A DNA stretch of 64,000 bases, from IMG/VR virus record IMGVR_UViG_3300042691_036629, positions 53,500-117,499 of that record; one strand, 5' to 3'. Below are positions 6,814 through 61,918 of this stretch, in pieces (position 1 is the first letter of the stretch; every line of letters begins with the position of its first letter). The notes beneath the pieces are model-generated. The model was not told where the DNA came from. It saw only the letters and a list, made by a program, of their open reading frames with translations, and did no database searches. This DNA is from a virus. Taxonomy: Duplodnaviria; Heunggongvirae; Uroviricota; Caudoviricetes. The translations under genes and the position numbers were made by a program.

Positions 6814-8717
6814 GAAATTTAAAACATATAAAATTATTTGAAAGTTTTTCTTTATTAGAAGCATTTGCTTCAACTAGTCTTAATAAAGTTTTTAACTATA
6901 TTAAAACAAAAGAGAGTAAAGAAAAGTTTTCTAACTATGTTAGAGCAATTGCGGGACAGATTGATGTCCCGTCAACTGCTATTACAGATGAATACTTTGA
7001 ATACCTACCGTATAAAGATGCTATTAGAAAGAATGTTTCTATGGATCTTGTTGATTGTAAAGCAACTTCTATTCAAGCTTTTGGAGATCCAACAAAAAGA
7101 GGTGGTAAAGGTGTACCAGGTGATGTTTGTACCAAGGGTAAATTAAAAAAGGCTTATGGTGCTTCAGGTAGAACAAGAGAGTATGATTGTCCTATTTGTA
7201 ATGGTACTGGTAAAGTAAGTCCTAGTGGTCAATTAAAATATCTTAAATTCTGGTTAAACTCAAAAGGTGATTTTATTGGTGTTACAGCTGTTGATGGTTT
7301 ATACCATGCTAATAAGAGAGATGTAAATCAATTTAAACAAATTGATATAACTGAAGAAGTTAAAGCTGTTTTAAATAGAGAAGGTAGAAATGATGCAACT
7401 GTTAAAGCGGATTTAGAAGCTATCGAATCTAAATATGGTTTAGAATCGGGTAAAACTAGATTAGCTACAGAAGGTTTAACAAATTATAGATGGAGAGATC
7501 CAAGTGGAATAACAATAGGAACTTATTGGAAAGACAGAGATGGTAAGGTTTATATAGCTTCTGGTAATAGTCGTTTAGATGATAAAAGACAAAGACCGGT
7601 TGGTGTTAAGTGGAAAGAGTTTGGAAGTTATTTAGCTCAATTACCTTATATTTTTAATGCTGTTACTGCGAATATTGATAGAGGAATTATAAAAATATTA
7701 ACTGATATTGAAGAAAAAGATGATGTTCTTTATAATGTTGGTGTAAACTTCACATATCCTAAAAGTGGTGGTGGAAGTTTCTCTTTGCAAGATAGTTTAG
7801 ATAAATCATTTTTAAGTGAGGCTGAGTTTGCTATTATATTTGATTTCAAGAAGTTTGAGGATGATATGATTGCTAATAATACAAAAAAACTTTCAACTAT
7901 CAAAGATGAAAGAACTGAAAGAAAAAAGGGTATTATTGGAGGTAAATTAGGTATCTCTGATAAAGATATTAGAAATGCTAATTTAGAAAGATATATAAAA
8001 GCTATTTCTGATGTTGATATAACAACTGGTTTTGATAGATTAGTTAAGAAACTACCTAGATTCTTTGGTGGTAGATTATCATTCTTTTATATTTATAGTG
8101 AGAAAAACTTTATTTCATATAGAAATACTATATTGAATTTATTACAATTCATGAGAGCTGAAGATGATGATGAGAAAAAAAATATTTCAGATAAAATATC
8201 TGATCGAATAAAAGAAACTTTTAATAACAATAAAATACACTCTGAGAGATTAGATAGAAGATTGGCATCATATAAAGATATTTTAGCTGATAGATCTGTT
8301 ACATCAGAAAATGATAATGAAAAAATTTTCTATAAATCTCAATTAGATATCTTAAATAAAATTATGCAGTTGAGTGCTAAAATATCTAATAAAATATCAC
8401 AACAGGAAGTTGAGTGTATTGAAGACTTTGAAATTATATACACTAAGATAAATGGTATATATAACGCACTCAAATCTGATAGAACGGGACTATTTAAGGG
8501 TAGTGGAGGACTTCAATATGTAGGTAGTGGAGGACTTCAATATGTAGATTATTTAATTGATTATGATGATGTAAATAGAACAATTAGGTCATTTGAATCT
8601 TATTATGGAAGACCAACACCTACACCGACTGATTTAGGTTCAACTAATTTTAATAGATATGTTGAAGATACTTTAAATAAGTTAGATTATATGATACGAT
8701 TAGTAGAAAGAATATAA
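6810..8717 (+). CDS. large hypothetical protein, MKxLKxFE N-terminal family, with Zn-ribbon-like CPICNGTGK
   Basis: 635 aa. Start MRNLKHIKLFESF overlaps the upstream stop (ATGA). Contains a 24-bp tandem duplication. Confidence 0.55.
   Translation: MRNLKHIKLFESFSLLEAFASTSLNKVFNYIKTKESKEKFSNYVRAIAGQIDVPSTAITDEYFEYLPYKDAIRKNVSMDLVDCKATSIQAFGDPTKRGGKGVPGDVCTKGKLKKAYGASGRTREYDCPICNGTGKVSPSGQLKYLKFWLNSKGDFIGVTAVDGLYHANKRDVNQFKQIDITEEVKAVLNREGRNDATVKADLEAIESKYGLESGKTRLATEGLTNYRWRDPSGITIGTYWKDRDGKVYIASGNSRLDDKRQRPVGVKWKEFGSYLAQLPYIFNAVTANIDRGIIKILTDIEEKDDVLYNVGVNFTYPKSGGGSFSLQDSLDKSFLSEAEFAIIFDFKKFEDDMIANNTKKLSTIKDERTERKKGIIGGKLGISDKDIRNANLERYIKAISDVDITTGFDRLVKKLPRFFGGRLSFFYIYSEKNFISYRNTILNLLQFMRAEDDDEKKNISDKISDRIKETFNNNKIHSERLDRRLASYKDILADRSVTSENDNEKIFYKSQLDILNKIMQLSAKISNKISQQEVECIEDFEIIYTKINGIYNALKSDRTGLFKGSGGLQYVGSGGLQYVDYLIDYDDVNRTIRSFESYYGRPTPTPTDLGSTNFNRYVEDTLNKLDYMIRLVERI
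8499..8546 (+). repeat. perfect 24-bp tandem duplication (GSGGLQYV x2) inside CDS
   Basis: GGTAGTGGAGGACTTCAATATGTA occurs twice in tandem. Confidence 0.8.
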
Positions 8718-8720
8718 TAA

Positions 8721-8750
8721 AAAAAACCACTCATTTGAGTGGTTTTTTTT
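8721..8750. terminator. bidirectional rho-independent terminator
   Basis: A-run, CCACTCA-TTT-GAGTGG, T8 run, between convergent genes. Confidence 0.7.
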
Positions 8751-8958
8751 ATTTCTCTTCAATTTTGATAGTCACTTCTACCTTAACATTCTTCTTATCA
8801 AACTCTCTTAACTTAGAATTGATAAAGTCCGAAACATCTTCTAACCTAACATGTCTAAGTGTATTCTCAGTTTCCTCCGAGATAACACTTTCAATTACAA
8901 AACTATCTTTAGTTTCATAAACACGTCCTTCAAAGGACTTTTCATTATATGTTTTCAT
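8749..8958 (-). CDS. hypothetical protein
   Basis: 69-aa ORF, acidic. Confidence 0.4.
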   Translation of the reverse strand: MKTYNEKSFEGRVYETKDSFVIESVISEETENTLRHVRLEDVSDFINSKLREFDKKNVKVEVTIKIEEK

Positions 8959-8960
8959 AA

Positions 8961-9539
8961 CTATTTAATATAACCTAACTCTTTTAAAGCGTAGTAACCA
9001 AAGATACAAGCAAATATACTAATCATTATGCTACCACTTAACATACCAAATATAAGTAAAAAAACCGAAGTAACAAGAGAAATACCCATAGATAATTCAA
9101 AAGCCTTTCGTCTATTTCTCATATTCAACATTAATAAGTCTTTACAAATATGTCCACCATCCATTGGATAGATTGGTAATATATTAAAAATGAATAAAAA
9201 GAAATTCACTGTAAAGAATACTTCAACTCCTAATATTAAACCAATTATAGCCAATATTAAATTACTGAGTGGACCAGCCGCAACTACTTTAATATTATCA
9301 CGAGTGTGCATATTACTATCAACTTGTGCTTGACCAGCAAACAAACCAATACTAATACCATAAGCACCATACCCAAGATGTTGTGCCATGAATGTGTGAG
9401 CCATTTCGTGTATTAAAATAGCGATAAACGCTGAAATAAATACATCGAATTGAAAATGAACCATTGGTAATAATAAGAAAAACCAAAGACTGAGGGTTAC
9501 CGGAACACCTCTAAATGTAAATAATTTAATATCACTCAT
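8961..9539 (-). CDS. M50-family (site-2 protease-like) membrane zinc metalloprotease
   Basis: 192 aa, multi-TM, with an HEMAH zinc motif and a downstream MDGGH (LDG-like) motif. Confidence 0.6.
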   Translation of the reverse strand: MSDIKLFTFRGVPVTLSLWFFLLLPMVHFQFDVFISAFIAILIHEMAHTFMAQHLGYGAYGISIGLFAGQAQVDSNMHTRDNIKVVAAGPLSNLILAIIGLILGVEVFFTVNFFLFIFNILPIYPMDGGHICKDLLMLNMRNRRKAFELSMGISLVTSVFLLIFGMLSGSIMISIFACIFGYYALKELGYIK

Positions 9540-11863: not shown

Positions 11864-11906
11864 TCTACAAAATTAAAAAATTTTTTTAATATTTTATATA
11901 TACATT

Positions 11907-12518
11907 ATGTTAAAAATTAAAACTTATAACCAATTTAATTCGAGTGATTGGTTTGGACCTGTTAAGGTTCTAGATATAAAAGATCGTAAAGTTTATACAA
12001 CTTCTGGAAATTTTGTAAATAATTCTATAAATCAAATAAAGAAAGGTTATACATATGTTTTTAGATTGAATGGTGATATGATAGTTGATACGGGTATGTC
12101 TTGTGTCGATTTAGTTATTTTAGTTGATACTGGCTCAAATTATAAGATGTTGGCAATTCTAAGAAATAAAGATCCATTTAAAGGCAAGTGGGCTTGTCCT
12201 GGTGGGAACATTGACGAAGGTGAAGAACCAATAGATGCTGCTATTCGTGAGTTGGAAGAAGAAACAAGTTTAAAAGTACCTAAAAGATATTTGAGATTTA
12301 TTGATGTATTCAATGAACCGTGGAGAGATCCAAGAAATAAGAATTGTATTTCTTATGCTTTCTCAGTTATTTTAAGTGATATACCTGAAACATCCGCGGC
12401 TGATGATGCTGATGAATGTGATTGGATTGATGTTAGTTATAGTGGTGAAACTATTGTTGATATGGCATTTGATCATAAATCTGTTATAAAAGGTGCTATT
12501 AAAAGAATTAAAAGATAA
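11907..12518 (+). CDS. Nudix hydrolase
   Basis: Nudix box GGNIDEGEEPIDAAIRELEEETSL (Gx5Ex7REuxEExGu). Confidence 0.8.
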   Translation: MLKIKTYNQFNSSDWFGPVKVLDIKDRKVYTTSGNFVNNSINQIKKGYTYVFRLNGDMIVDTGMSCVDLVILVDTGSNYKMLAILRNKDPFKGKWACPGGNIDEGEEPIDAAIRELEEETSLKVPKRYLRFIDVFNEPWRDPRNKNCISYAFSVILSDIPETSAADDADECDWIDVSYSGETIVDMAFDHKSVIKGAIKRIKR

Positions 12519-12536
12519 AGATTAAATATATAAGAA

Positions 12537-13658
12537 ATGAGAAAGTATAACCAATTTATTTTAGAAAAATTAAATAATGATTTAGTCATCTTATTAGAGG
12601 GGTATTTATATTCGACATCCGAATTTCATAGAAAGATTTCCGAATTATCTAGACAATCTGGTAGAGTGGGTGATATTTCTAAAATCATTGATGAATTCTT
12701 AAATAGAAAAGCAGATCCATTTCATCAATTAAAAGATGATTCAATAACTCAAAACTTTTTTGATACTACCAATCGAGTTGATATGGTTAGTTTCACTATG
12801 AATGATAAAGTTCCTAAAGATTGGGATAATGATGAAGATCCAGATTTGCCATACACATTAGGGAGATCTGAAATGAAAATTGGTAGAGTTTTGAGATCTA
12901 TTGTGTCTATGATACAAAGTTCAAAATCTATTAATTTTAATTTAACCGATAAAGATGTTGAAGACTTTGTGAACGCATATAAATCATTAGAAATAAATGA
13001 TAAATGGCAGTTTAAAATTGTTAAAGGTGATGATATTATCAAATATTATAACACATCTAATTACTTAAACACTAATGGGACTTTAGGAGGATCTTGTATG
13101 GGTGATGCTAGGGGTAAATTAAAACTATATGTGGAGAATGATAATAAAGTTGGTCTTTTAATTCTACACAATAAAGAAACTGATCAAATTTGTGGTCGAG
13201 CTTTAGTTTGGAAACTAAAAAAGTCACCTTGTGATGCTAAATATTTTATGGATAGAGTTTATGTAAATAATGATTCTGATGTTATAAAGTTTAAAAATTT
13301 TGCTAATGAGAATAAATTTTTATATAAACAGAAAATGAATAGTCATACGGAAACAAATGTTTGTTTTTTATATGATAATAAGGAATTTTTTGGCGAAATA
13401 TCTGTCAAATTAGAAAAATCAAACTTCAATAAATATCCATTCATTGATACACTTTGTTTCTTAAAAGGTAAAAAGTTATCAAACTTACCATCTAAGAATT
13501 GTAATTGGTTACATGAAACGGATGGTGGTGATGATCAATGTTATGAATGTGATGGTGAATGTTTCTCAAGTTACAATGGAATCTGTGATGTTTGTGGAGA
13601 TGGTCACATCTTTTTGAAAAGAAAAGGAATTGAAACTAAAATAAATAGATTAGTATGA
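12537..13658 (+). CDS. SCM-core paralog family protein with C-terminal Cys-rich Zn-ribbon
   Basis: 373 aa. Contains GTLGGSCMGD...VGLLILH...GRALVW...FMDRVYV...YPFIDTL, then CYECDGECF...CDVCGDGH. Confidence 0.55.
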   Translation: MRKYNQFILEKLNNDLVILLEGYLYSTSEFHRKISELSRQSGRVGDISKIIDEFLNRKADPFHQLKDDSITQNFFDTTNRVDMVSFTMNDKVPKDWDNDEDPDLPYTLGRSEMKIGRVLRSIVSMIQSSKSINFNLTDKDVEDFVNAYKSLEINDKWQFKIVKGDDIIKYYNTSNYLNTNGTLGGSCMGDARGKLKLYVENDNKVGLLILHNKETDQICGRALVWKLKKSPCDAKYFMDRVYVNNDSDVIKFKNFANENKFLYKQKMNSHTETNVCFLYDNKEFFGEISVKLEKSNFNKYPFIDTLCFLKGKKLSNLPSKNCNWLHETDGGDDQCYECDGECFSSYNGICDVCGDGHIFLKRKGIETKINRLV

Positions 13659-15676
13659 GATATATAAAAGAATTTTTCAATTACATAAAAGAAGAATGGT
13701 CAAAGAATGAACCAATTCCAGAAATATTAGATAAAGAAAAAGGATTAGCTGTTTTCCTAATCGGTGCTCCCGGTATTGGAAAGTGCTTAGAATATAATAC
13801 ACCCATTTTAGTGAATAATAAAATGACTAAAATTGGTAAATTGATAGATAACTATAACACCGAATCAAAAATTGGTGAAATAAATATTCCTGTTAAAAAC
13901 TTATATGTTAAATCATTAAATGATAGTGGTGAGTTTGTGGAAAATGAGATTTCGAGTTTATATAGAGGCTATTCAGAAAAGTTAATAAATATAAAAACAC
14001 AAACGGGTGTTGATATAAAAGTTACACCTATACACCCATTATTAGTTTTAGAAAAAAACGGTGATATTATTTGGAAAAAATCATCAGAAATAACAATAGA
14101 TGATAAGTTAGCCAGACCTAGAATAATAAATAACACTTTTAATAATAAATCAAAAATAAGTAATGAATTATCAAGGATTATTGGTTATTCGTTAAGTGAT
14201 GGTAATTTTATAAAAAATAAAAATAGTAAATTTCTAACACTAACAAATATAGATATTGATATAATAGATGATTTTAGAAAATGTGTCGAAAAAGAAAATA
14301 AAATATTAACAGTAAAATCTAAAAAAATAAGACATAGTGTTCAATATTCAGATGATATTAAATTAGGAAATCGAAGATTTAAAAAAGATAAATATGATTT
14401 TATTTCAAATATTTCTGAAATATGTGGTGATTATATTTTTGGCAACAAATCACATAAAGTTAGAATTCCGGATGATATAATATCAAACAGTGAATCATTA
14501 AAACATTTCTTAGGTAGTTATTTATCTTGTGATGGTTCTGTATTTGAAAATAGAGTTGAATATTACACATCGTCATATGAAATGGCTACTGATTTATCTT
14601 ATGCACTTTTAATGTTTAATTTATTATTATAAATTAATTCCACCATGTCATCATTTGGTATAAATCCACCAATATTTGTATTAGTTTTTTCAATTGGTTT
14701 AATTTTTTTTCTACTACATCTAATATATTTATTTAATATTTCTCCAAATAAATTAAAATCATCACTTGTTACCCTGACTATATATGATAAAAAATCCTTA
14801 TTATTTAAATTTGTTTTTTTATTTTTTATTACCGAATTTATACCAGAAGATGAAACTGGATATAGATTTACTAGAAGTTATAAATATAGAAGAGTAATAA
14901 CGAAAAAACGTTTTAATAAAATATGTAATTTTTTAAATGAGAATAATGTTTATATACCAGAAACATATATTAATCATCACAATAACTTATTTTTTGATAA
15001 AATAACTAATATATCAACAATAGAACATAATGATTATGTTTATGATATAGTCTTAGATAAACATCATAACTTCATAGGTGGTAACTTACCAACAATACTA
15101 CATAATTCACACTTTGTGAATAATTATTTACATACAAAAAATACAAACATTAAAGACTTCTCAACTGATGATATTTCACTTCTTTACACAAAAGATCCAA
15201 ATGTTTATTATAAAGGAAAAGAAAAAGAAGAAGGTGGTAGAACAAAAAATGCGTCTGAATTAAACTTAATGAAGATGAAAGGTTTTATGAAAACTGGTCA
15301 AAACTTTATCTATGATACAACCGGTGCTGGTAAAGAATATACTGATACTGGTTATGAACACATTAAGGATATATTTGATTTAGCAAGAGAGAATGGATAT
15401 GAAATAGTTTTTATTCACTTATTATCTACATTAGAAACATCAATTGAACAAGATAAATTAAGATCGAGACACGTTGATCCACACTATATTAAATGGGCTT
15501 ATGCCAAACAAATGGGTGGTGAAGTGGATGGTGTTAAGGTAACTGGTAATATGAAAAGATATAAGGAATTAGGACCAGATAAATATTATGTTATAACTTC
15601 TATTGATAAAAAATATAAGTTTTATAAATTAGAAGGAGATAAACTTCTTAAAAGAAAAAATGATAAATGGGTTTAA
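13655..15676 (+). pseudogene. P-loop NTPase gene carrying a LAGLIDADG intein, interrupted by in-frame TAA at 14630-14632
   Basis: N-extein ends LIGAPGIGK and C-extein begins SHFVNNYLH, so the spliced Walker A is GAPGIGKS. The two track ORFs (13655..14632 and 14645..15676) are in the same frame, separated by a single ochre codon. Confidence 0.5.
13784..15106 (+). mobile_element. intein (Hint plus LAGLIDADG endonuclease domain) in Walker A motif
   Basis: Starts CLEYNTPIL and ends VYDIVLDKHHNFIGGNLPTILHN before Ser. Two LAGLIDADG-like blocks: IIGYSLSDGNF and LGSYLSCDGSV. Confidence 0.7.
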
Positions 15677-15779
15677 TACTCATTTGAATAGTTTTTCTAA
15701 TTTATAAGCTATCATACCGGCAATAGCTCCTAAAAAAAATCCTAATATTAGAATGGTTTTCTTCATAAAGTGAAGATAG

Positions 15780-16313
15780 TTATTTCTTTTTACATTTCAA
15801 AATCATTAACCACTTTCCGGATTCTAATTTAGGAAGTGCCTCTGGTGTACCAAACTCTTCAACGGATTGAGCAAATTTTAACATAACTAACTCACCTCTT
15901 TCTGGAGATGCTTTCTCTCTACCTTTTAAAGAGATAACAACTTTTACTTTATCACCGTCACTTAAAAACTCTCTACCTTTTTTAGATTTAGTTTCTAAAT
16001 CATGATCTGATATATTAACCGATAATTGTATTTCTTTTAAAGAGGATTTAACAGCATTTTTCTTTTTCTCTTTCTCAATCTTTTCTTGATTATAAAGAAA
16101 TTTGTTGTAGTCCTCAATTCTAACAATAGGTGGAGTTTGATTTTCATTAATCATAATCAAATCTTTTTCCTCTGCTTCAGCCATTCTAATAGCTTCATTT
16201 CTAGAAATAACGATTGGTTCTCCATTACCAATCAATCTAACATCACTTGATGTTATTTCTAAATTAATTTTGTGTTTTCTTTTTGGTTCTACTCTCTTAA
16301 AGGGTTTTCTCAT
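15780..16313 (-). CDS. infC: translation initiation factor IF-3
   Basis: 177 aa. VRLIGNGEPIVISRNEAIRMAEAEEKDLIMINENQTPPIVRIEDYNKFLY and the C-domain DHDLETKSKKGREFLSDGDKVKV align to IF3 throughout. Confidence 0.8.
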   Translation of the reverse strand: MRKPFKRVEPKRKHKINLEITSSDVRLIGNGEPIVISRNEAIRMAEAEEKDLIMINENQTPPIVRIEDYNKFLYNQEKIEKEKKKNAVKSSLKEIQLSVNISDHDLETKSKKGREFLSDGDKVKVVISLKGREKASPERGELVMLKFAQSVEEFGTPEALPKLESGKWLMILKCKKK

Positions 16314-16336
16314 TTATTTTTTATTTTTTATTTTTA

Positions 16337-17098
16337 TTACCACAAATCGAACTCTTTATTCTTCTTTTTATTTATGGTTTTTGATTCATCTATATATTCA
16401 AAATTTTCGATATCAAAAATAGCATCTATTTTAAAATCTCTATAATCAGCAACTCCATTCAACTCTTCCCAACCTCTATTTATCAGCTTCCATCTTCTAG
16501 AACTAATTCTTTTTTGATTATACATTTTAGCTAAGTTATTTACAAGAAACTTTCTATGTTTAGCATGTGAAATAGCACCTGGATAGTTTTGATATAAGTT
16601 TTTACCATCATAAGATATACCACAACAACTAATATCAACATTAGCAATCAAATCAATAAACGTTTGCGTGTATAAATCTTGAGTAACATCGGATGGTCTT
16701 TCAACAGACATAACTCTTGGTCTTATAAGTTGAACCACTTTAGTTCCTTTAACATAAGAATAGGGTTCAGATATAACCATATTCATATCATAAACAGATG
16801 ATAGATCTTTAGGTGCTAAATTTTCATGATAAATATATCCATTCTCAACTAATACTTTATCAACAAAATTCATTGATTTAGTACCAATTAATATATCCAC
16901 ATCATTGATTTTTTGACCGGCTATAATATCTCTTAAAGCTCCACCAAAAACTCTAACTAACTTATTATAAATTATTCCACGATCTTTTAATTCATTAGTG
17001 ATGAAAGTATCATCACCAAATAACAAAGATGAATCAAACTCTAAGTATTCGTCTAATTTTTGTTTAATCATTATATTCAAGTTTAAGTTTCTTATCAC
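16337..17098 (-). CDS. polymerase-beta-type nucleotidyltransferase (CCA-adding / poly(A) polymerase head-domain-like)
   Basis: FGGALRDIIAGQKINDVDILIG matches the GGxVRD...DxD head motif. At 253 aa it holds only the head/neck. Confidence 0.5.
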   Translation of the reverse strand: MIRNLNLNIMIKQKLDEYLEFDSSLLFGDDTFITNELKDRGIIYNKLVRVFGGALRDIIAGQKINDVDILIGTKSMNFVDKVLVENGYIYHENLAPKDLSSVYDMNMVISEPYSYVKGTKVVQLIRPRVMSVERPSDVTQDLYTQTFIDLIANVDISCCGISYDGKNLYQNYPGAISHAKHRKFLVNNLAKMYNQKRISSRRWKLINRGWEELNGVADYRDFKIDAIFDIENFEYIDESKTINKKKNKEFDLW

Positions 17099-18788
17099 CT
17101 ATTTGTAGTATGTAAAGACCTTTAGAAAGTTGTGGTAACTCTACATCAAAATAATTATCACCTAATTGTAAATCTAATGATTTTTTATAAAATTGTTTAC
17201 CGGTTAAATCATATATCAATAAGTCTTCAACCTTACTAAAAGATGAATGTAAAGAAACATTTATTTCATTTGTAATTGGATTTGGATAAACCGTTAAGTT
17301 CTCAATATTTAATTGAATTAATATAGACTCCCAATCTGTTCTTTTATAATCACCATTATAATCAGTTTGTTTTAATCGATAGTAAGTTATTCCAGTTTCA
17401 ATATTTCGATCAATTGCTTGATAGTTTATTCTTTGAGTTGAATTACCAGCACCTGGTAGAGTTGTAACTATATCATAATCTAAACCATCTTTTGACTTTT
17501 CAATTGTGAAATAATCATTATTGTGTTCTGATGCTGTTGACCATCTTAATTTAACAACACCATCTTCAAATTTAACTTTAAAGTAAATCAACTCAATTGG
17601 TAAAGCAATACCATTTGATTCATAACATCCAACATCTGGATTACCAATACGACTATAATGTCTCAAATCATCAGTTGGTGCTCCGGTTGTTGTTCCCCAA
17701 TCTATACAAGGTGATGTACCAGAAAGTGTATAATCATCACTAGCACTATTTGTGAATAGTGGATTTGATATTAACGGTGATGTATTTGATGTAGCTGATT
17801 TTATCTCAGCTGAATTTCCATAACAACAATTTGTCATGTTAACGGTAGCGGCATTATTATAAACATCATTGAAAGTATTACCTAAATTATTATAAATAAT
17901 TGTATTTATTAAATTTATTTTAGCTGATGATAAAGCCAAAACACCTCCAGTTCCAACAGAAGCATTACCATTAGCAGTTATAGTACAGTTCATAATATTT
18001 AATGTACTATATGTATTCATAGCAACAATAACAGCCTCTCCTGATGATGTATTATTTTCATAAAATAAACAGTTTTCTAATGTTAGAGTAGAGGTAGATC
18101 CAACACCAAAGAATATAGCACCTCCGTAATTAGTAGCGGTATTTGAATAAAAAATTGAATGTTTTATTGATGATGATGATGTTGGTGATAATTCTATTGA
18201 AATAGCACCACCATAATATTCAGCATTACAATTTTTGAAAGTACAATAATCGATGGTTATTCCCTCAGCAGAATAAATAACACCACCTCGGTGATGTAAA
18301 GAGGCAGTTCTTGTATCACAATTATCAAACTGACAATAAGTTGCTTTAAATCCTGTACATCCAGCAATTATTTTAATTGCTCCACCACCTCCTGGATCAC
18401 CTCCATCAGAATTTTTATGATCCTTTATAATTAATTTAGTGATTGTGATATTATCATTATTTGTGTTATTTAACAATAACCATCTTGCGGTACTACCTGC
18501 ATCAAAAATAGATGTAGGTACACCAGATGATAAAGCCGCACCAGAAATTACAAAACCTTCATCATCAGTACCAACAGTAATACCTGTCTCAGAATAAGTT
18601 CCTGCTTCAACGAAAATAGTATCATTAGAACCTAAATTATAGGTGCTGAAAACGTTTGCTAATGTTAATTTTGGTGTAATAGATGATGTTCCATTGTTTG
18701 TATTGTTTCCGGTTGAACTAATATAATAATTAGTTGCTAATGAACTAAATGATAATAATAGTGTTAGTAAAAATAATATTCTTTTCAT
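17064..18788 (-). CDS. secreted right-handed beta-helix repeat protein with T9SS (Por) C-terminal sorting domain
   Basis: Signal peptide MKRILFLLTLLLSFSSLA. Many NxxGGAI/TxxNN beta-helix repeats. C-terminus VYPNPITNEINV...IYDLTGKQ...LSKGLYILQIGDKKLKLEYND. Confidence 0.7.
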   Translation of the reverse strand: MKRILFLLTLLLSFSSLATNYYISSTGNNTNNGTSSITPKLTLANVFSTYNLGSNDTIFVEAGTYSETGITVGTDDEGFVISGAALSSGVPTSIFDAGSTARWLLLNNTNNDNITITKLIIKDHKNSDGGDPGGGGAIKIIAGCTGFKATYCQFDNCDTRTASLHHRGGVIYSAEGITIDYCTFKNCNAEYYGGAISIELSPTSSSSIKHSIFYSNTATNYGGAIFFGVGSTSTLTLENCLFYENNTSSGEAVIVAMNTYSTLNIMNCTITANGNASVGTGGVLALSSAKINLINTIIYNNLGNTFNDVYNNAATVNMTNCCYGNSAEIKSATSNTSPLISNPLFTNSASDDYTLSGTSPCIDWGTTTGAPTDDLRHYSRIGNPDVGCYESNGIALPIELIYFKVKFEDGVVKLRWSTASEHNNDYFTIEKSKDGLDYDIVTTLPGAGNSTQRINYQAIDRNIETGITYYRLKQTDYNGDYKRTDWESILIQLNIENLTVYPNPITNEINVSLHSSFSKVEDLLIYDLTGKQFYKKSLDLQLGDNYFDVELPQLSKGLYILQIGDKKLKLEYND

Positions 18789-18798
18789 GTTTCTTAAT

Positions 18799-19236
18799 TT
18801 ATAAATCTATAATGTAGTTATAAGCATTAATAGTACCTATTGTACTAAACTGATAACACTTTGTTGGTGAAGTTCCTACTAAAGAAATTTTAATAGACCT
18901 TGATAATTCCAAATAATTAAAATATTCTTCTTTTTTTACATCAGGAGATAGTATAATAGTATAGTCATTAACAATTAAGTCTTTTAGGATAAAAGTTTTT
19001 GTTTCTAAACCATATGTTATTTCTAAAACTACGGTCTGTGTATCAGAAATAAAAGTAGAGTCATGTAAACAAAACATAACATCTTCATAATACTCTTGTA
19101 ATAACAATTCACTATTACCTGATTTAATATCAGCAACTCTATAAGCATCTAAACCACTTGTTACTTCCTCATGTAAATTCCATTGAGAGAAAGTAACAAA
19201 TGGTAAAAAAATCAAAAACAAAATCCAACTCCTCAT
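18799..19236 (-). CDS. hypothetical secreted protein
   Basis: 145 aa. N-terminal signal peptide MRSWILFLIFLPFVTFSQ. Confidence 0.4.
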   Translation of the reverse strand: MRSWILFLIFLPFVTFSQWNLHEEVTSGLDAYRVADIKSGNSELLLQEYYEDVMFCLHDSTFISDTQTVVLEITYGLETKTFILKDLIVNDYTIILSPDVKKEEYFNYLELSRSIKISLVGTSPTKCYQFSTIGTINAYNYIIDL

Positions 19237-19241
19237 AAAAA

Positions 19242-19679
19242 CTATTTAGTTTTAAACCAACCCAACACTTCAATTATTTTTTCTTTAATATTTTCACTAC
19301 TATCACTAGTTAAAGCATATGATAACATATCAATAACATCTGTTTCAGAATATAACTTTTTAACTGGTGAAACAACTACAACACCATTGTGTATTTTAAC
19401 TTTGTTATCACTATCATAGGAAACCTTAACTGATCTAATACTTGGACTTTTAATCCAAGTCCAAATAAAATCATATCCGATATTTGGGTATTCATCTTCT
19501 AAGTCAGAAGTAGCAACTACTTTATCAAAAATACGAAACTCTAATAAACAATTTTCACCACCTGGTATATTCTTACCTAAAATATCATAAGTATCATCAA
19601 ATCGTCTTATATTTGATAATTTTGATGTCTGAACAACATGAACAGAACATTCTATTTGTTTATCACCTATATTAATCAT
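19242..19679 (-). CDS. hypothetical protein
   Basis: 145-aa ORF. Confidence 0.4.
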   Translation of the reverse strand: MINIGDKQIECSVHVVQTSKLSNIRRFDDTYDILGKNIPGGENCLLEFRIFDKVVATSDLEDEYPNIGYDFIWTWIKSPSIRSVKVSYDSDNKVKIHNGVVVVSPVKKLYSETDVIDMLSYALTSDSSENIKEKIIEVLGWFKTK

Positions 19680-19834: not shown

Positions 19835-20296
19835 TTATTTACATTTTTTTAAAATTTCTTTACAAGTTTCTAACCATTCAAAATGTTCAACATTTACCGG
19901 TTTACAAGGATCACCACTTCTAATAATAGCCCATAATTCATCCGGATCATCATCTAAATGAAAAATAAAGTTTTTACCTTCTAAAAACTCAATCTTATCA
20001 ACGTGTTCTGTAAATTGTATTCTTTCTCTTGGAATACCAACCAATTCAGCAACATCATATAACTCTTGATTTTGTTTTTCAACCCACCACCAACCCTTGG
20101 CTAAAGCTGGTTCAGTAGCACATCGACTTGTTACAATCCAAACTTCATAACCTTCATTTACTAGTTTGGTTGCGTATTCTTGTACATCTTTACGTGACAT
20201 AGTGCTATCAAAATCCATAGATATTTTATTTCTCTTCATATATAATATACTTTTTATTCTCATCATTACTGTATATAACTCGATAAACTTTAGCAT
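19835..20296 (-). CDS. HAD-superfamily 5'(3')-deoxyribonucleotidase-like protein (start probably at an internal Met)
   Basis: DFDST (DxDxT) motif near the N-terminus. An upstream TTTTTT run suggests the real start is near Met-20 or Met-27 (about 20239 or 20218). Confidence 0.45.
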   Translation of the reverse strand: MLKFIELYTVMMRIKSILYMKRNKISMDFDSTMSRKDVQEYATKLVNEGYEVWIVTSRCATEPALAKGWWWVEKQNQELYDVAELVGIPRERIQFTEHVDKIEFLEGKNFIFHLDDDPDELWAIIRSGDPCKPVNVEHFEWLETCKEILKKCK

Positions 20297-21059
20297 ATGT
20301 CATGTTAGTATTTTTAACTACATCCATTATACTATCATAGACAATATTACATTCAATATCTAAAACCTTAATACTATTAGTTGGTTTTTTTCTTTCTCTT
20401 TTTCTCCTTATTAGAATATCATCTATTTTAAGATCGGCATTTTTAAAAATCCATATAAAGTTAAATGCACTATTACTTTTATATCTAACATTACAGGAAA
20501 TGTTTTTCCTAGAAAATCCCAATTCCAATTCAATATCTTTAGCACTTTTCCATTCTTTGATAAAATTACCATCCAAATCATATTGCAATATTGGTTTTTT
20601 TATACTCTCTGCGTTATTTTTAATCCACTCTTCACTTTTATAAACCTTAGTCCCTCTTCTTTTTTCACTTGCTAAAATCTCTTTCTCCGTTCTTTTAGCC
20701 TTTTTCTTAGTTTCGGATATCATTTTTTTAGTTTTATCCGTATGTTTTAATCCACAAGATCCTTCACCACCAAGAGTTAAATTCATTCCAAATTTATAGT
20801 TGTATCTTCGAAAACTATTATATTCAATTATATACTTTGTCTCCAACTCAGATAAATATTCCTCACTACAAAAATCTTCAAATAGTATCTCAAAACTATG
20901 TTTATCCCAACCATATTTAACTAATGATTTATACAAAACTCTTTGTTTTTTACACCATAAACCTTTATAAGATCTTACTCTCTTTTCCAAATTAAAAGTT
21001 TTACCAATATAAATCCTGTTAGTTGGTGAAATTATTTTATAAATATATCCCTTTTCCAT
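20226..21059 (-). CDS. GIY-YIG homing endonuclease
   Basis: MEKGYIYKIISPTNRIYIGKT...R...E core, with a basic C-terminal DNA-binding region. Confidence 0.7.
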   Translation of the reverse strand: MEKGYIYKIISPTNRIYIGKTFNLEKRVRSYKGLWCKKQRVLYKSLVKYGWDKHSFEILFEDFCSEEYLSELETKYIIEYNSFRRYNYKFGMNLTLGGEGSCGLKHTDKTKKMISETKKKAKRTEKEILASEKRRGTKVYKSEEWIKNNAESIKKPILQYDLDGNFIKEWKSAKDIELELGFSRKNISCNVRYKSNSAFNFIWIFKNADLKIDDILIRRKRERKKPTNSIKVLDIECNIVYDSIMDVVKNTNMTYAKVYRVIYSNDENKKYIIYEEK

Positions 21060-21149: not shown

Positions 21150-22865
21150 ATGAGTAATATTTTAAGATATGATAGTTTCCTAAACGAGAGTAAACTCAAT
21201 TTACTACTTGAAGGTAATATGGTTTATAAAGATGATTTCAAAGAAATTTTGAAGTCGGTTAATAGTCCACTTTCAAAAGAGATTTTAGATTTAGAGGGTG
21301 TTGACGTTGATGTTGATACAAACTTTATTGATATTTCTGATGATAAAGACAACTTTATACAATTTAAATCCGATAAAAAGTCTAAAAACTCTTGTGTTAT
21401 AATTGATTTTGGCGCATCATTGTCTATCTTATCAAAAGAAATATTTACATCATTTGCTAAATTATTTGAAGATCCAAGAGTCGAAAAAGGTTTTTTGAAT
21501 TGGTATGAATTACTTCAAAGAAACCAAAAAGCTACTATTACTAAACAGATAACAAGTATTGATGATTTTAATGATGAGGATGTAAAAAATAGATTAAAAT
21601 GGTATCTTGATCAAGGACGTAAAATTTATCATATAAGATTTAATAGAAGTGGTGAGAATATTGATCTTATCATTGAAGATTATGGTCTTAAAATTGGTGA
21701 GGGAGCGGTTTCCTCACAAGAAGTTAGAGTTGGATCATTCGTTCAATCACTATTGAAGAAAGCTGGTAAAGAAGTTAAAGGAACTGAAGTTGAAGATTTT
21801 GTAACTAAGTTTTCAATTGCCACTAAAGCTAAAAAAGAAAATATATTCTCTGATTTTGAATTGGTTGAAGGTGATGATATTAAAAAGTTTTATTATGAAG
21901 GTAATTATTATCGAGGTGGTAATCATACTTTAGGAGCATCTTGTATGAGACATGCTAGATGTCAAGACTACTTAAACATATATTCTAAAAATCCTAAAAG
22001 TGTTGGATTAGTTATATTAAAATCTAAAGAAGATCCAACTAAAATTATAGGTAGAGCTCTTCTTTGGAAAAAACCAGAATATATGCCATGGGATGGTGGT
22101 GATGATGAAGGAGTAATAACGAAATATAATTTAGTAAAACATACCGAATCAGAAGGAAAACCATTTATGGATAGAATTTATGTGAGTAATTCACCAGACC
22201 AAGAATTGTTTATTAAATACGCAATTAAAATGGGATATGTTTATAAGAAAAATCAAAATATTTCAGAGGAAGAGTTTATGTTTAATGGTTCTGATTCAAA
22301 CATCGGAACAATTAAAGTTGATTTAGAAATGAACGGCTTTAGTAAATACCCTTATTTAGATACTCTTTGTTATTATGAATGGGATTATGGATTCTTAACA
22401 AATGAGCAAAAATTAGTAATAAATAGTAACTATTACGAACTAAGAGAAACTGATGGTGGTAATGGAGAAGAATGTGAAAGATGTGGTGGTGATGAAAGAA
22501 TTGATTGCTATGAATGTGAGGGTGATGGAAGATATGATTGTGAAGAATGTGGTGCCTCTGGTGAAGTAGAATGTTCTAATTGTGATGGACACGGTACTCT
22601 ACCTTGTGATAACTGCGAAGGAACTGGAAAAGAAGACTGTTCTAGTTGTGATGGAACTGGAGAAGATGATGAGGGAAATGAGTGTTCTTATTGTAGTGGA
22701 TCAGGTAAACAAGATTGTTCTGAATGTGAGGGTGACTGTACTAACGAATGTGATAGATGTGGTGGTGATGGTACCAGAGAGTGTGGTGATTGTGATGGTG
22801 AAGGTAGAATTTGGTGTAATCGATGTGATGGTGATGGTAGAATTGATTGTCCAGATTGTACATAA
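21150..22865 (+). CDS. SCM-core paralog family protein with C-terminal DnaJ-like CxxCxGxG zinc-finger array
   Basis: 571 aa. N-terminus MSNILRYDSFLNE. Contains HTLGASCMRH...VGLVILK...GRALLW...FMDRIYV...YPYLDTL, then about nine CxxCxGxG repeats. Confidence 0.55.
   Translation: MSNILRYDSFLNESKLNLLLEGNMVYKDDFKEILKSVNSPLSKEILDLEGVDVDVDTNFIDISDDKDNFIQFKSDKKSKNSCVIIDFGASLSILSKEIFTSFAKLFEDPRVEKGFLNWYELLQRNQKATITKQITSIDDFNDEDVKNRLKWYLDQGRKIYHIRFNRSGENIDLIIEDYGLKIGEGAVSSQEVRVGSFVQSLLKKAGKEVKGTEVEDFVTKFSIATKAKKENIFSDFELVEGDDIKKFYYEGNYYRGGNHTLGASCMRHARCQDYLNIYSKNPKSVGLVILKSKEDPTKIIGRALLWKKPEYMPWDGGDDEGVITKYNLVKHTESEGKPFMDRIYVSNSPDQELFIKYAIKMGYVYKKNQNISEEEFMFNGSDSNIGTIKVDLEMNGFSKYPYLDTLCYYEWDYGFLTNEQKLVINSNYYELRETDGGNGEECERCGGDERIDCYECEGDGRYDCEECGASGEVECSNCDGHGTLPCDNCEGTGKEDCSSCDGTGEDDEGNECSYCSGSGKQDCSECEGDCTNECDRCGGDGTRECGDCDGEGRIWCNRCDGDGRIDCPDCT
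22465..22860 (+). repeat. coding tandem array of about 9 Cys-rich CxxC(x)GxG units
   Basis: Repeated TGTGA(A/T)GGTGATGG...TGT units. The antisense ORF at 22701..22889 is an artefact of this repeat. Confidence 0.7.
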
Positions 22866-22880
22866 AATATAAAGATAAAT

Positions 22881-23350: not shown

Positions 23351-24931
23351 TTAAACTAATTCAGGTTGTTCTTTAGAAACAAGATCCTCTAACTTCCCAC
23401 GTATGATGGTCAAAGTCGTTTCGTTATAGAACTTACCATCTTTGAAGATAACTTTCAGCTCATTATCTTCCGAGTTAACATCATCCCAAGTACATTTATC
23501 AATTAATGTAAACTCACCATCAACTTTAACTACTTTTAGTAATCCAGTTGCTGATTTTTTAGTACCATCATCAGTGATAGGGTCTTTAAAGATGTTGATA
23601 CCTTCAACATCACCATCAACTTCAATTTCGATGTAGGTTGCTTTTTGAGCCATACCATGTGTATCGCGTGTTACCATCTGAAGTGAATAGGATCCCACAC
23701 CGAGAACGATGTTTGTTGTTGCAAATCCTTTAGCTGATAATCTTTCATAAATACTCTCAGCTCTCTTATAGTTAATAGAGTCACCATAGATAGCACCAAT
23801 GTGTGAGTCTAATTTTTTATATCCGGTTGATGTTTCAGTACCACCAAAGATATCCCATAATAACTCGATAACACCTTTATATTGAGGTTGTTTGTATCTT
23901 TCATTATAAGAAGACATATCTGGAGTTATGCTACCACAAATAATATCTACTGGATCACCAGAGTCAGGACGGATAACAAGTTTGCCATCTCTTGCTAAAA
24001 TTTCATCTTTTAATATTTGACAGTACTCCGTAATAACTCTCCATAAATCCCAAGTATCAGATACTAATGACAATATTCCAGTTGGAAAAGTTCTTAATAA
24101 ATACCTAAATGTCTCAACTTCAAAGTTACCAACCTTATCCCAAGAACCATCTTTAGTCTTAATGAAAAATCCAGTCAATGAACACATAATAGCATGTTCA
24201 GATGCGATAACAGAGTTGATACAAACATCTTTTTCATCATAATACATTCTAGCAGCTGGTATAACAGGTAGTGTATCTGAACCTCTCGAACAAGTAGCAA
24301 ATCCTAAACCACTATTAACAATAGCTGATTTACCACCCATACCTCTCATTGAGAAATCATGATTTTGATAGTCAACAAACCACAAACTCTCCGGATCTGT
24401 TTTTGTGATCCACTTTGTTGATAACTCTCTTAATGCGAATGATAGCGTCGCTGAAGTTGGTGCTTGCCAAGATTCAGCAGAATTAATAGTTTCTAAGTAA
24501 TTAACTATCCAGTCAAAAACTTGACCATTTAAAGGTTTAGTATTAACGATAGTCGATAATGGTATTTTATACGGAATTCTCTCACCTTCAGTGATTGCTC
24601 TAAACTCAATCGGAAGATATCCCAATTTATGTAGTTCTTTGAAGTGAGTAACATCAAAAGGATCACTCAGCATTAACATATCTGTTAAATCCTTCCCAAA
24701 TTGATCGATTTCTTCAATTGGTCTTTGAAAAAAGTTAACATCCCAATCTTGTTTCATTTTTCTCACCATCATTTGTTGACCAAACGAAACAATTTTACCA
24801 TTATTTGGACAATTGCTATATTTACCACTCCTTGGTGTAAAATTTGATTGCATCAAAACACTACCCACTGGTAGCATTGGTTTGTGTCCTGTTTTATACA
24901 CATCGGTATAATAAATTTCTAAAAAGTTCAT
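23351..24931 (-). CDS. nicotinamide phosphoribosyltransferase (Nampt/NadV-like; possibly Namat-type)
   Basis: 526 aa. Conserved LVIRPDSGDP active-site block of the Nampt family. Confidence 0.75.
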   Translation of the reverse strand: MNFLEIYYTDVYKTGHKPMLPVGSVLMQSNFTPRSGKYSNCPNNGKIVSFGQQMMVRKMKQDWDVNFFQRPIEEIDQFGKDLTDMLMLSDPFDVTHFKELHKLGYLPIEFRAITEGERIPYKIPLSTIVNTKPLNGQVFDWIVNYLETINSAESWQAPTSATLSFALRELSTKWITKTDPESLWFVDYQNHDFSMRGMGGKSAIVNSGLGFATCSRGSDTLPVIPAARMYYDEKDVCINSVIASEHAIMCSLTGFFIKTKDGSWDKVGNFEVETFRYLLRTFPTGILSLVSDTWDLWRVITEYCQILKDEILARDGKLVIRPDSGDPVDIICGSITPDMSSYNERYKQPQYKGVIELLWDIFGGTETSTGYKKLDSHIGAIYGDSINYKRAESIYERLSAKGFATTNIVLGVGSYSLQMVTRDTHGMAQKATYIEIEVDGDVEGINIFKDPITDDGTKKSATGLLKVVKVDGEFTLIDKCTWDDVNSEDNELKVIFKDGKFYNETTLTIIRGKLEDLVSKEQPELV

Positions 24932-40495: not shown

Positions 40496-40927
40496 ATGAA
40501 ATATCTAAAACTATTTGAAAAATTCACTATTGAAGAACTCATTGAAAATAATAAAAAGGCTAATGAAATACTAGAAGATATTAAAAGTATATCATATATC
40601 ATAGAAGATGAGGGATTTGATATTCAATATACCTTTCAATTCAGTAAAGATTGGAAACAATCATTTATAAATGTTGATGATTATAACACATCAAGAGATG
40701 CTGGTAGAGCTAGAAAAAAGATAAATGGAATTTCTTTAGTTATTCACAAAAATTCGATTGAGACATCTAAAAAAACTAGACTTGATTTTTCACCTTCTGA
40801 TAATGAAATACTTAATAATTTTATTGTTCTTCTGAAAGAACACTTAGATTATATAGATGGAAAATCTATTCTAAGTGGGCGCGGTAATTTTAATAATTCA
40901 ATGAGTATTTTAATTCAATTTGGTTAA
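40496..40927 (+). CDS. hypothetical protein, MKYLKLFEKF N-terminal family
   Basis: 143 aa, with TAATATATAC just 5' of the ATG. Confidence 0.5.
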   Translation: MKYLKLFEKFTIEELIENNKKANEILEDIKSISYIIEDEGFDIQYTFQFSKDWKQSFINVDDYNTSRDAGRARKKINGISLVIHKNSIETSKKTRLDFSPSDNEILNNFIVLLKEHLDYIDGKSILSGRGNFNNSMSILIQFG

Positions 40928-41640
40928 GAGTAGAATTTATCAGAAAACACACTATAATTATTACCAACAGAATTATGATCGTTTATAACAGCAAAAACAA
41001 CCTCTTTATATAAAGATGAATAACCTTCTTCAACTAAAACCTTTCTAAATAATTCTGACATCACATGGGGATCATTCCCAAAAACACCACAACCAAAAGC
41101 TCCCAAAACCAAGTTCTCAACACCATGTTTAGATGGGATAGTAAGCATCAATCTTATCTTTTGGAGTGTAATCTCTTCATAAGTCTCTTTATCATAACTA
41201 CGACTGTTTAAGTTTATAGCAGCTATCGTAATAATATCACACTCAACCGGTTCCATATCATTATAATCCTTATCTTTAAAGAATGTAGCATCTGATGTAT
41301 AAAGACAAGTACCATCTTCTAATGGATAAAAATCTTCTACAATTGAATTGATTAAGTTAGAACATCTAAATAAACATTCTTCTTGAGCTCTGGCTCCATT
41401 ACGAACTCCACCACCCGGTTTCTTATACGAAGCCATATTCAAGCCACAAGTTTTACCAGACTTAGATAACTCTACAAGAGCAGATACCGTATCTAAATTA
41501 ACGACCTTAACATTACCTTTATAAACTGATAAATAAGGTCCAACTATCTCATTATTTGAATGTTGTGTTGTAACACCATCATTAAACTTCACGGACTTGA
41601 TTTGAGTATCGTGAAATATCTCTACTAAATTATTTCTCAT
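40924..41640 (-). CDS. macro-domain-like / microbial PARG-like (DUF2263-type) protein
   Basis: KKPGGGVRNGARAQEECLFRCSNL matches the GGG-x6-8-QEE signature of PARG/macro-like ADP-ribose-processing enzymes. Confidence 0.5.
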   Translation of the reverse strand: MRNNLVEIFHDTQIKSVKFNDGVTTQHSNNEIVGPYLSVYKGNVKVVNLDTVSALVELSKSGKTCGLNMASYKKPGGGVRNGARAQEECLFRCSNLINSIVEDFYPLEDGTCLYTSDATFFKDKDYNDMEPVECDIITIAAINLNSRSYDKETYEEITLQKIRLMLTIPSKHGVENLVLGAFGCGVFGNDPHVMSELFRKVLVEEGYSSLYKEVVFAVINDHNSVGNNYSVFSDKFYS

Positions 41641-43556: not shown

Positions 43557-44018
43557 TTAAATCGACTTTAGAAAATCATCTAATGACTTATTACCCTTCT
43601 TACCATTACACTCACCACAACATGGAGTTATATTACTAACATCAAACCTACCTCCTCCTCTTGATACAGGAACGATATGATCAATCGTAGCCTTTATACT
43701 TTCTTTGACACGCATCCCATCATACTCAATAACCAAATCTCCCTTACCACAATAAGTACACTTAATATCACCATCACGAGATAAAACACTCTCTAAATAA
43801 CTTCTACTAAACTCAATACGTTTATTAATCAAATCCATCTTCTCTATATAATCCACATCCATCTCCATTAAATATTTTCTTAATAAGATAGAAGATGCTA
43901 ATGATTTACAATTACTAACATCAGATAATATTAAATCCACCTCTTTTGTAGACCCCGAACTCGACTTCTTAACAAACTTTATCATATTATGTGTGTGATT
44001 ATATACAAATATAATCAT
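43557..44018 (-). CDS. HNH endonuclease
   Basis: CTYCGK...IDHIVPVSRGGG...NITPCCGECNGKKGN is the HNH/zinc-finger signature. Confidence 0.7.
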   Translation of the reverse strand: MIIFVYNHTHNMIKFVKKSSSGSTKEVDLILSDVSNCKSLASSILLRKYLMEMDVDYIEKMDLINKRIEFSRSYLESVLSRDGDIKCTYCGKGDLVIEYDGMRVKESIKATIDHIVPVSRGGGRFDVSNITPCCGECNGKKGNKSLDDFLKSI

Positions 44019-44042: not shown

Positions 44043-44768
44043 TTAAATTGGTAGATTAACTTTATTTAAAAGTTGATTAGAAACGTGTGTATATATCTCT
44101 GTTGTTTTGGTGGATGAGTGACCTGCTATTTTCTGTATTATTCTTAGATCTGTTCCATTTTCTAAGAGGTTGGTAAAGGCTGAGTGTCTGAGGGTATGTA
44201 TAGATGAATTTTCATCAATATATTTTTTATAGATATTTTGACAGGATTGTATTGAATATTTGTTTGTGGATTGACCATTAAAAAGATATTCTTTTGGTGT
44301 ATATTTTTCTGAATATATTTTTATTAGATTTTGTACGTTTTCTGAAAGTGGTACAATTCTATCTTTTTTACCTTTAGCATTTTTAATATGAATAATCATT
44401 CTTTTGGAGTCAATATCTTCTATTTTAAGATTTATTATTTCGGAAACTCTTAAACCAACTGAATAGGTTAAAGTAAGTATAGTTTTATGCTTAAGGTTTT
44501 CTATTTTAGAAAGTTTAGATTTGATATAATCGCCTACATCATTTGTCCATTTTCCATTAAAAAACGCAGGTGTTTCAAATATAACATTAAACCCCTTATC
44601 AACAATGAAAAAATTCATAGTATCAGAAAATACACCCCAAAAAAATCCATTAGAATCTTTAGTGTTATCATCTATTATATCTCCAATAGTTTTACTCTCA
44701 CTAACATCAGATATATTCAAGTTTTCTTTAAACTCTTCGAAACTTTGTATGTTATTTTTACCTTTCAT
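44043..44768 (-). CDS. tyrosine recombinase catalytic domain with non-canonical N-terminus (truncated/chimeric integrase)
   Basis: Catalytic motifs GLRVSE (box I Arg), HTLRHSAF (HxxR) and GHSSTKTTEIYTHV (Tyr). The N-terminal about 70 aa are unrelated to a core-binding domain and are shared with the neighbouring gene. Confidence 0.65.
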   Translation of the reverse strand: MKGKNNIQSFEEFKENLNISDVSESKTIGDIIDDNTKDSNGFFWGVFSDTMNFFIVDKGFNVIFETPAFFNGKWTNDVGDYIKSKLSKIENLKHKTILTLTYSVGLRVSEIINLKIEDIDSKRMIIHIKNAKGKKDRIVPLSENVQNLIKIYSEKYTPKEYLFNGQSTNKYSIQSCQNIYKKYIDENSSIHTLRHSAFTNLLENGTDLRIIQKIAGHSSTKTTEIYTHVSNQLLNKVNLPI

Positions 44769-47956: not shown

Positions 47957-48029
47957 GGTCAGAAGGGACAGGATTCGAACCTTAATCTCTCTCTTAATGA
48001 GAGGCTCTTTCCAGTTGAGCTACCCACCT
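47957..48029 (-). tRNA. tRNA-like gene, anticodon loop AUUAAGA (possibly tRNA-Leu UAA), weak T-stem
   Basis: GGATTCGAACC on the plus strand, so the T-loop is read on minus. Acceptor stem AGGUGGG/CCCUUCU pairs 6 of 7. D-arm GCUC..GAGC. Anticodon stem CUCUC/GAGAG. Confidence 0.5.
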
Positions 48030-61828: not shown

Positions 61829-61918
61829 TAGTCAGAAAAGGATTCGAACCTATATAAGCAAAATTTTCAGAATCAGTATCTGAGTCATCTAGCCGTCCTA
61901 CCATTAGACGATCTGACT
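61829..61918 (-). tRNA. tRNA-like gene, anticodon loop UACUGAU (CUG, Gln-like), non-canonical D region
   Basis: Acceptor stem AGUCAGA/UCUGACU is perfect. GGTTCGAATCC T-loop. Anticodon stem UCAGA/UCUGA is perfect. 90 nt long. Confidence 0.5.

Follow-up and report, generated by a model that had tools for sequence, protein, structure and literature searches.

Three minus-strand genes lie in series in the window (the whole 64,000-nt stretch of DNA analysed here), encoding a T9SS-tailed protein, then a nucleotidyltransferase (NTase) and then a predicted initiation factor IF3. The first gene (17064..18788, minus strand) encodes a 574-aa protein that matches Por_Secre_tail (PF18962, 38.4 bits) and whose orthologue in the related phage L040 has a weak Beta_helix match. 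Its stop codon overlaps the start of the second gene (16337..17071, minus strand), which encodes a minimal, class II-type, Gad2-like NTase. We corrected the start of this gene from GTG 17098 to ATG 17071, the most plausible start, which forms an ATGA overlap with the upstream stop. The resulting protein has 244 aa, as in public gene calls, rather than the 253 aa of the mechanical GTG open reading frame (ORF) given in a first-pass annotation of this DNA. A 23-nt, A-rich spacer without a Shine–Dalgarno motif (16314..16336, minus strand) leads from the NTase stop to the ATG of an infC-like gene (15780..16313, minus strand), the 177-aa product of which was recognized as a full-length IF3 from its ORF, from Pfam, TIGR00168 and phrog_9787 matches and from alignment with solved IF3s. 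Scans for sigma-70 promoters (32 observed versus 34.4 expected) and for the Bacteroidota −7 motif TAnnTTTG (114 observed versus 109 expected) were at chance level, and all terminator-like matches fell within coding sequence, so these scans do not set the boundaries of transcription units.

The window probably derives from a very large phage that infects Bacteroidota. This phage is a relative of the 'Mahaphage' group, for which a 2020 study of huge phages predicted replication in Bacteroidetes, as it did for five genomes of more than 634 kb (Al-Shayeb et al. 2020; PMC7162821). The top matches of the NTase, of a 571-aa ORF and of a 635-aa ORF in the phage collection were all huge-phage records of 634–735 kb (LR745206.1 and LR756501–LR756504), and the family of the 571-aa ORF is multicopy and has members in the LR7565xx and LR745206 huge-phage records and in Cellulophaga phages. 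Megablast of window positions 8000–26000 against 50,697 phage records returned zero matches, so the window phage has no close relative in that catalogue. At least 19 metagenomic contigs, of up to 171,766 bp, encode the identical IF3 protein, and the gene content around IF3 comprises many ORFans, GIY-YIG/NUMOD and HNH endonucleases, an intein-containing P-loop protein, NAPRTase, NUDIX, PARG and ClpP proteins, a D12-class N6-adenine DNA methyltransferase and a tyrosine recombinase. We rejected a cellular origin of the window on the basis of the ORFans, the GIY-YIG, HNH and NUMOD proteins, the intein, PARG, the recombinase and the matches to Mahaphage-type records; a further point against it is that a Phage_base_V gene adjoins one IF3 homologue. 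A Bacteroidota host fits the T9SS sorting signal of the upstream protein and the near absence of Shine–Dalgarno-like motifs, which precede only 1 of 68 ORFs in the window.

The IF3 gene and its lineage

Profile searches supported the first-pass identification of the infC-like gene as IF3 across both domains. In a Pfam scan, the N-terminal domain (residues 16–83; 16065..16268, minus strand) matched IF3_N (PF05198) over profile positions 1–70 of 70 with 68.8 bits against a cut-off of 26.9, and the C-terminal, 30S-binding domain (residues 91–174; 15792..16043, minus strand) matched IF3_C (PF00707) over positions 2–85 of 86 with 90.2 bits against a cut-off of 34.8. The NCBIfam infC equivalog TIGR00168 matched end to end (142.5 bits, cut-off 60; positions 2–170 of 170), and all three of these scores lie far beyond chance. 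Additionally, the ORF matched the PHROG family phrog_9787, 'translation initiation factor' (E = 1.5e-41). Residues 4–177 aligned with residues 3–179 of E. coli IF3, and the protein also aligned with IF3 from T. thermophilus and with a third solved IF3, as chains from initiation complexes, C-domains included. The two domains are connected by a Lys-rich linker, EKIEKEKKKNAVKS, ahead of the C-terminal domain.

We then aligned 57 cellular IF3s with 120 proteins of the clade to which the window protein belongs. The conserved residues of the cellular proteins are kept both in the N-terminal half (N17, V25, R26, G31, A41, A45, D51, L52, P61, Y69, K71 and K78) and in the C-terminal half (K93, D105, K109, F116, L117, G120, D121, K122, K124, G131, R132 and P161). 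A reading in which the ORF lacks the C-terminal ribosome-binding domain therefore fails, because that domain and the conserved residues are retained. On these sequence comparisons, the ORF is predicted to encode a complete, conserved and canonical IF3, which shares with bacterial IF3 (infC, TIGR00168) its domain architecture, length, Lys-rich linker and hallmark residues, and which differs from it in the ATG start of its gene, in a location outside the ribosomal-protein operon and in clade-specific residues such as K50, N70 and V64.

Cellular infC genes are marked by a thrS–infC–rpmI–rplT operon and by a non-AUG autoregulatory start, which are features of the gene and not of the protein family; in E. 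coli, the AUU start makes infC self-repressing. Neither thrS, rpmI nor rplT was found around the IF3 gene on these contigs, which together with the ATG start is consistent with a phage copy, and all five phage IF3 genes checked have an ATG start behind an A-rich leader. The lineage of the window IF3 spans 65–94% identity in metagenomic phage-like contigs, the only kind of contig in which it has so far been found. All of the homologues that we inspected, at 68–100% identity, lie among ORFans, homing endonucleases, DNA_pol_B or Phage_base_V genes, and none in a thrS–infC–rpmI–rplT setting; those at 68–92% identity adjoin a family B DNA polymerase gene or lie a few kb from a gene for a Phage_base_V protein. 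Contigs with recorded homologues reach 147, 258 and 623 kb. The nearest cellular IF3s recovered were 40–46% identical, in an exact-peptide-pattern scan that returned no Bacteroidota. Because this cellular sample is limited by the pattern and is without Bacteroidota, we conclude only provisionally that the window IF3 was not acquired recently from a host.

IF3 matches were present in 92 of 50,697 phage records, some of which are unannotated fragments that may be host DNA. Among the best 40 of these 92, the top match was LR756504.1, and the window protein was only 34–42% identical to the matches listed; it belongs to a lineage separate from the catalogued phage IF3s (phrog_9787; Agrobacterium phage Atu_ph07, Pectobacterium phage CBB and the LR7565xx records). 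These have in common with it a two-domain IF3 and a very large phage genome, and the phrog_9787 proteins are likewise encoded outside any thrS–infC–rpmI–rplT operon. IF1, IF3 and CCA-adding enzymes were described in huge phages in 2020, with the proposal that they intercept or redirect host translation (PMC7162821), and IF3 in jumbo phages was noted in 2021 (PMC7824862). The first-pass description of phage-borne IF3 as uncommon is thus numerically right, yet a PHROG family and two papers already describe such proteins: the gene is rare but known, and the window holds a further case of an IF3 of huge or jumbo phages.

The nucleotidyltransferase, CCA-adding enzymes and Gad2

An exhaustive profile search placed the NTase in a family of 612 cluster representatives at 50% identity, mostly of 200–260 aa. 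Its relatives occur on 27 viral contigs of IMG/VR, of up to 675 kb, and its best matches among phages are LR745206.1 and LR756502.1. Catalytic motif A, R40-x-F-G-G-x-x-R-D...D57-x-D59 (RVFGGALRDIIAGQKINDVD; 16895..16954, minus strand), is of the GGxxRD...DxD type of CCA enzymes, with G43, G44, R47, D48, D57 and D59 in place. All of its defining columns are invariant across 43 aligned family members, in which R40, F42, E102, P103, N144, V145, D146, C150, S153, D155, R188, R192, K195, R199, G200 and W201 are also invariant. The family core stops near residue 211, and Pfam recognizes nothing in the N-terminal extensions that longer members carry. The protein has an intact two-metal class II core (GG...RD, DxD, E102, D146 and D155), made up of a head and a short helical neck.

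Profile searches found little beyond motif A. PolyA_pol (PF01743) reached 20.2–20.3 bits against a cut-off of 23, over profile positions 2–30 of 126, a match of 29 residues that covers motif A only, and two relatives barely reached the cut-off (23.0 and 23.8 bits). No neck or RNA-binding Pfam domain was detected even at E ≤ 10, and NCBIfam and PADLOC scans gave zero matches. A search of the family profile against PDB sequences returned only sub-significant matches to motif A (E = 0.14–1.9), and a TIM10 match in that search was rejected as spurious. Fold comparison was needed because the PDB profile search was sub-significant; it identified CC-, A- and CCA-adding enzymes and poly(A) polymerase (3wfo, 3aql, 3h37 and 1miv) as the closest folds, with the head-domain fold present and at most 157 NTase residues aligned to targets of 344–517 aa.

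The NTase nevertheless fails several defining features of CCA-adding enzymes. It is about 150–280 residues shorter than the best targets among class II tRNA nucleotidyltransferases and bacterial poly(A) polymerase, and the body and tail domains that hold tRNA in CCA enzymes are absent from its 244 aa. An invariant NVD stands where the RRD of motif B would be expected, so that RRD has apparently been replaced, and the consensus of the 43 members has no conserved ED pair at the expected place of EDxxR (motif D); both sites are those that we take to correspond from the order of class II motifs, not from superposition of coordinates. From the first-pass assignment to the CCA/poly(A) type, the GGxxRD...DxD head and the fold therefore stand, whereas the sub-threshold PolyA_pol match, the missing RRD and EDxxR motifs and the missing body and tail speak against the rest. 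Stand-alone 'CCA-adding enzyme head domain' proteins (2la3, S. pneumoniae NP_344798.1; short viral proteins with a PolyA_pol head, BFVD) are likewise small class II NTase heads.

The identical NTase protein and many relatives carry a precomputed label, PF26128 'Gad2 (weak)', which was absent from our local Pfam scan. Gad2 (Gabija anti-defence 2) is a phage protein of 400 aa that is required to escape Gabija, with an NTase domain predicted by AlphaFold (Yirmiya et al. 2023). We aligned eight Gad2 homologues from Supplementary Table 10 of the preprint of that study and compared them with the NTase family by hhalign, which revealed remote similarity (probability 86.5%, E = 4.6e-6, 135 columns, about 21% identity). 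The match takes in the catalytic core in full, with its terminal R-x-x-K-x(3)-[RK]-G-[WY] helix, and does not reach the C-terminal half of Gad2. Because of this coverage, the window NTase appears from profile–profile comparison to be remotely related to the catalytic core of Gad2 rather than an orthologue of Gad2. Both proteins are phage-borne and their NTase cores are probably homologous, but the window NTase is without the C-terminal half of about 230 residues of the validated, 394–400-aa Gad2 proteins, and has GGAxRD in place of the AGGxITS of Gad2. Some of the listed Gad2 homologues are also short (214–278 aa).

Possible linkage of IF3, the NTase and tRNA genes

The first-pass annotation had taken IF3, the NTase and five tRNA-like genes together as a sign that the phage tunes host translation. 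Only two tRNA genes reach threshold in the window, one by ARAGORN and two by Rfam at gathering score. The first, a 70-nt 'Leu-taa' tRNA (47960..48029, minus strand), was found by ARAGORN and scores 30.3 bits against an Rfam cut-off of 29; the second (61829..61918, minus strand) was found by Rfam (40.3 bits) and has 32 nt in the anticodon arm, where 13 are expected. Both lie 31–45 kb from the IF3 and NTase genes. Neither tRNA gene encodes the 3′ CCA, which weakly suggests some need for CCA addition that a host enzyme could meet. Near the NTase relatives, 5 of the 24 loci scanned contain tRNA genes.

The order T9SS protein–NTase–IF3 recurs in phage L040 and in all contigs with identical genes. 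Beyond these close relatives the two genes part: IF3 was found within 6 kb of an NTase relative in 0 of 27 IMG/VR loci, and the NTase within 5 kb of an IF3 of 76–80% identity in 0 of 3 loci. Comparison of the window with L040 gave 92% identity for IF3, 55% for the NTase and 48–96% for neighbouring genes, and the two genes are under very different evolutionary regimes. In the phage collection the NTase matches LR745206.1 and LR756502.1, and the IF3 matches listed (the best 40 of 92) fall in other records (LR756500, LR756501, LR756503, LR756504 and LR756511). ORF clustering over 28 loci revealed no universal neighbour of the NTase. A small ATP-dependent ligase-like ORF lies 1.4–2.2 kb from the NTase in five loci, two of which are duplicates, and the 571-aa multicopy ORF recurs near the NTase in five loci; we rejected both as functional partners, judging these associations to be clade synteny. 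The NTase loci without IF3, the IF3 loci without the NTase, the divergent identities and the lack of a universal partner point to an adjacency that is most likely incidental and is confined to close relatives. In the window phage, the two genes are probably transcribed together, and with 23 nt between them on one strand some co-regulation may exist.

These results bear on the main rival for NTase function, tRNA 3′-end repair, in which a minimal CCA- or A-adding NTase would mature or repair the 3′ ends of phage and host tRNAs and form one translation-takeover unit with IF3 and the tRNAs. The closest folds include CC-, A- and CCA-adding enzymes as well as poly(A) polymerase, and the best of them modify tRNA; motif A is of the type found in CCA enzymes; both window tRNAs are without an encoded 3′ CCA; the NTase and IF3 genes are co-oriented and closely spaced; and CCA-adding enzymes and IF3 have both been reported in huge phages (PMC7162821). 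However, a protein of 244 aa has no room for a body and tail, the 29-residue PolyA_pol match falls below cut-off with no neck or RNA-binding domain beside it, and NVD replaces RRD with no conserved ED pair at the presumed motif positions. The adjacency to IF3 is not conserved either, and tRNA genes accompany the NTase in only a minority of loci and are distant in the window. We therefore consider this reading unlikely, and the idea of a single translation-tuning unit is not supported, given an adjacency confined to close relatives and tRNA genes tens of kilobases away.

Proposed roles during infection

The joint explanation that we favour, with moderate confidence, is that a Mahaphage-related phage carries independent auxiliary genes, a canonical IF3 and a counter-defence NTase, whose adjacency is incidental. 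For the NTase, this would mean a template-independent nucleotidyltransferase acting in counter-defence on a nucleic-acid 3′ end or on another small target, as opposed to a CCA-adding enzyme with a housekeeping role; we propose both with low confidence. A more specific version, which we regard as about as doubtful as tRNA repair, is that the family forms a large minimal class II group that shares ancestry with the catalytic half of Gad2 and performs a new counter-defence reaction. This reaction might tag or repair nucleic-acid 3′ ends, or might yield a nucleotide product that blinds a host sensor, in either case without tRNA-holding domains.

The phage IF3 would bind the 30S subunit of the host as cellular IF3 does. 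By adding to or replacing host IF3 during infection, it may keep subunits dissociated and ready to initiate, and it may proofread the pairing of start codon and initiator tRNA on A-rich phage leaders that lack Shine–Dalgarno motifs. With its ATG start, the phage gene could escape infC feedback while the extra IF3 represses the host gene, if that gene works like the one in E. coli.

Somewhat less likely again than the tRNA-repair reading is the possibility that the phage IF3 is an interfering or discriminating variant, which would shift start-site choice to phage mRNAs or block host initiation outright. The phage clade carries several fixed substitutions (K50 for L/V, N70 for G, I53, I63, V64 and E32) where the cellular sample is conserved, and the lineage is phage-specific and only about 40–46% identical to any cellular IF3 recovered, all of which would fit such a variant. 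Most of these substitutions are conservative, however; both domains and the linker keep all their hallmark residues, domains have been neither lost nor added, and strong purifying selection fits ordinary IF3 function equally well. It is very improbable that the NTase is a toxin-like or antibiotic-type minimal NTase (MenT/AbiEii, ANT/Lnu) or a phage-carried part of a defence system, as its small size and the toxicity that overexpressed Gad2-type NTases can have might suggest, since its closest fold and profile matches lie outside the MenT/AbiEii, ANT/Lnu and defence-system NTase families.

Neither the IF3 nor the NTase result alters current understanding. The window IF3 adds one example, from a distinct and well-conserved lineage, to the huge phages with an initiation factor of their own. 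Bacteroidota initiate translation without Shine–Dalgarno pairing, and because the predicted hosts belong to this phylum, the phage protein could be a handy tool for studying the role of IF3 in Shine–Dalgarno-independent start selection. The NTase is the less understood of the two genes; it comes from a viral family of considerable size whose catalytic core is intact and which is remotely linked to an anti-defence protein. If the NTase family does perform a new counter-defence reaction on a core shared with Gad2, its characterization could also reveal how Gad2 works.

Genes found beside relatives of the nucleotidyltransferase

In a subset of the viral loci that carry relatives of the window's nucleotidyltransferase, we observed an ATP-dependent ligase-like ORF of ~220 aa lying 1.4-2.2 kb from the relative (L022, 5312..5977; L026, 7507..8145; L028, 7979..8680; L033, 8125..8817). 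The single member scanned matched DNA_ligase_A_M (E 2.4e-9) and, weakly, RNA_ligase. This proximity may hint that the relatives act where nucleic-acid ends are repaired, but clade synteny may equally account for it. We also found that members of a multicopy family, represented in the window by a 571-aa ORF (21150..22865, +) with no match in Pfam or PHROG, lie within 6 kb of nucleotidyltransferase relatives in four further viral loci. This family occupies 8-16 places per genome in the huge-phage records of 634-735 kb and is present in Cellulophaga phages as well.

An intein-bearing gene and other mobile and auxiliary genes

The gene for a P-loop (GAPGIGK) protein (13655..15676, +) contains an intein with Hint and LAGLIDADG domains, inserted directly after the P-loop lysine. 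Because one in-frame TAA (14633..14635) interrupts the reading frame, gene calling splits it in every contig into an ORF of 325 aa and another of 343 aa; the second holds the intein C terminus (...TILHN|S). The same place in a related phage (L040) is occupied by an unbroken, intein-free gene of 232 aa (8624..9322). The intein could be naturally split, or else decaying.

Large phages typically bear a mobile-element load such as that of the window, which includes genes for a microbial PARG-like protein (40924..41640, -), an HNH endonuclease (43557..44018, -), a tyrosine recombinase or integrase (44043..44768, -) and a GIY-YIG/NUMOD1 homing endonuclease (20226..21059, -). The NAPRTase-family gene (23351..24931, -) and the NUDIX gene (11907..12518, +) are auxiliary genes of the NAD-salvage type, which have been reported from jumbo phages; the L040 counterpart of the NAPRTase is only 48% identical.

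tRNA genes and translation signals

Rfam detected a tRNA (61829..61918, -; 40.3 bits) that ARAGORN missed. In the anticodon arm it carries 32 nt at a place for which the model predicts 13, and it may therefore contain an intron. A 70-nt gene called as tRNA-Leu(taa) (47960..48029, -) barely reached the Rfam cut-off (30.3 against 29) and lacks a long variable arm, a feature expected of bacterial tRNA-Leu. Neither gene encodes the 3' CCA.

Translation starts in the window are devoid of Shine-Dalgarno motifs, apart from 1 of the 68 ORFs of at least 100 aa. Window starts are preceded by A-rich stretches, with peaks at -11/-12 and -4, and the stop codons are TAA (51), TGA (12) and TAG (5).

A protein with a type IX secretion sorting domain

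We found that a 574-aa phage protein (17064..18788, -), which has a signal-peptide-like N terminus and a DUF5123/beta-helix region, ends in a C-terminal sorting domain of the type IX secretion system (PF18962). This protein would presumably be exported by the T9SS of the host, and the presence of such a domain on a phage protein points to a Bacteroidota host.
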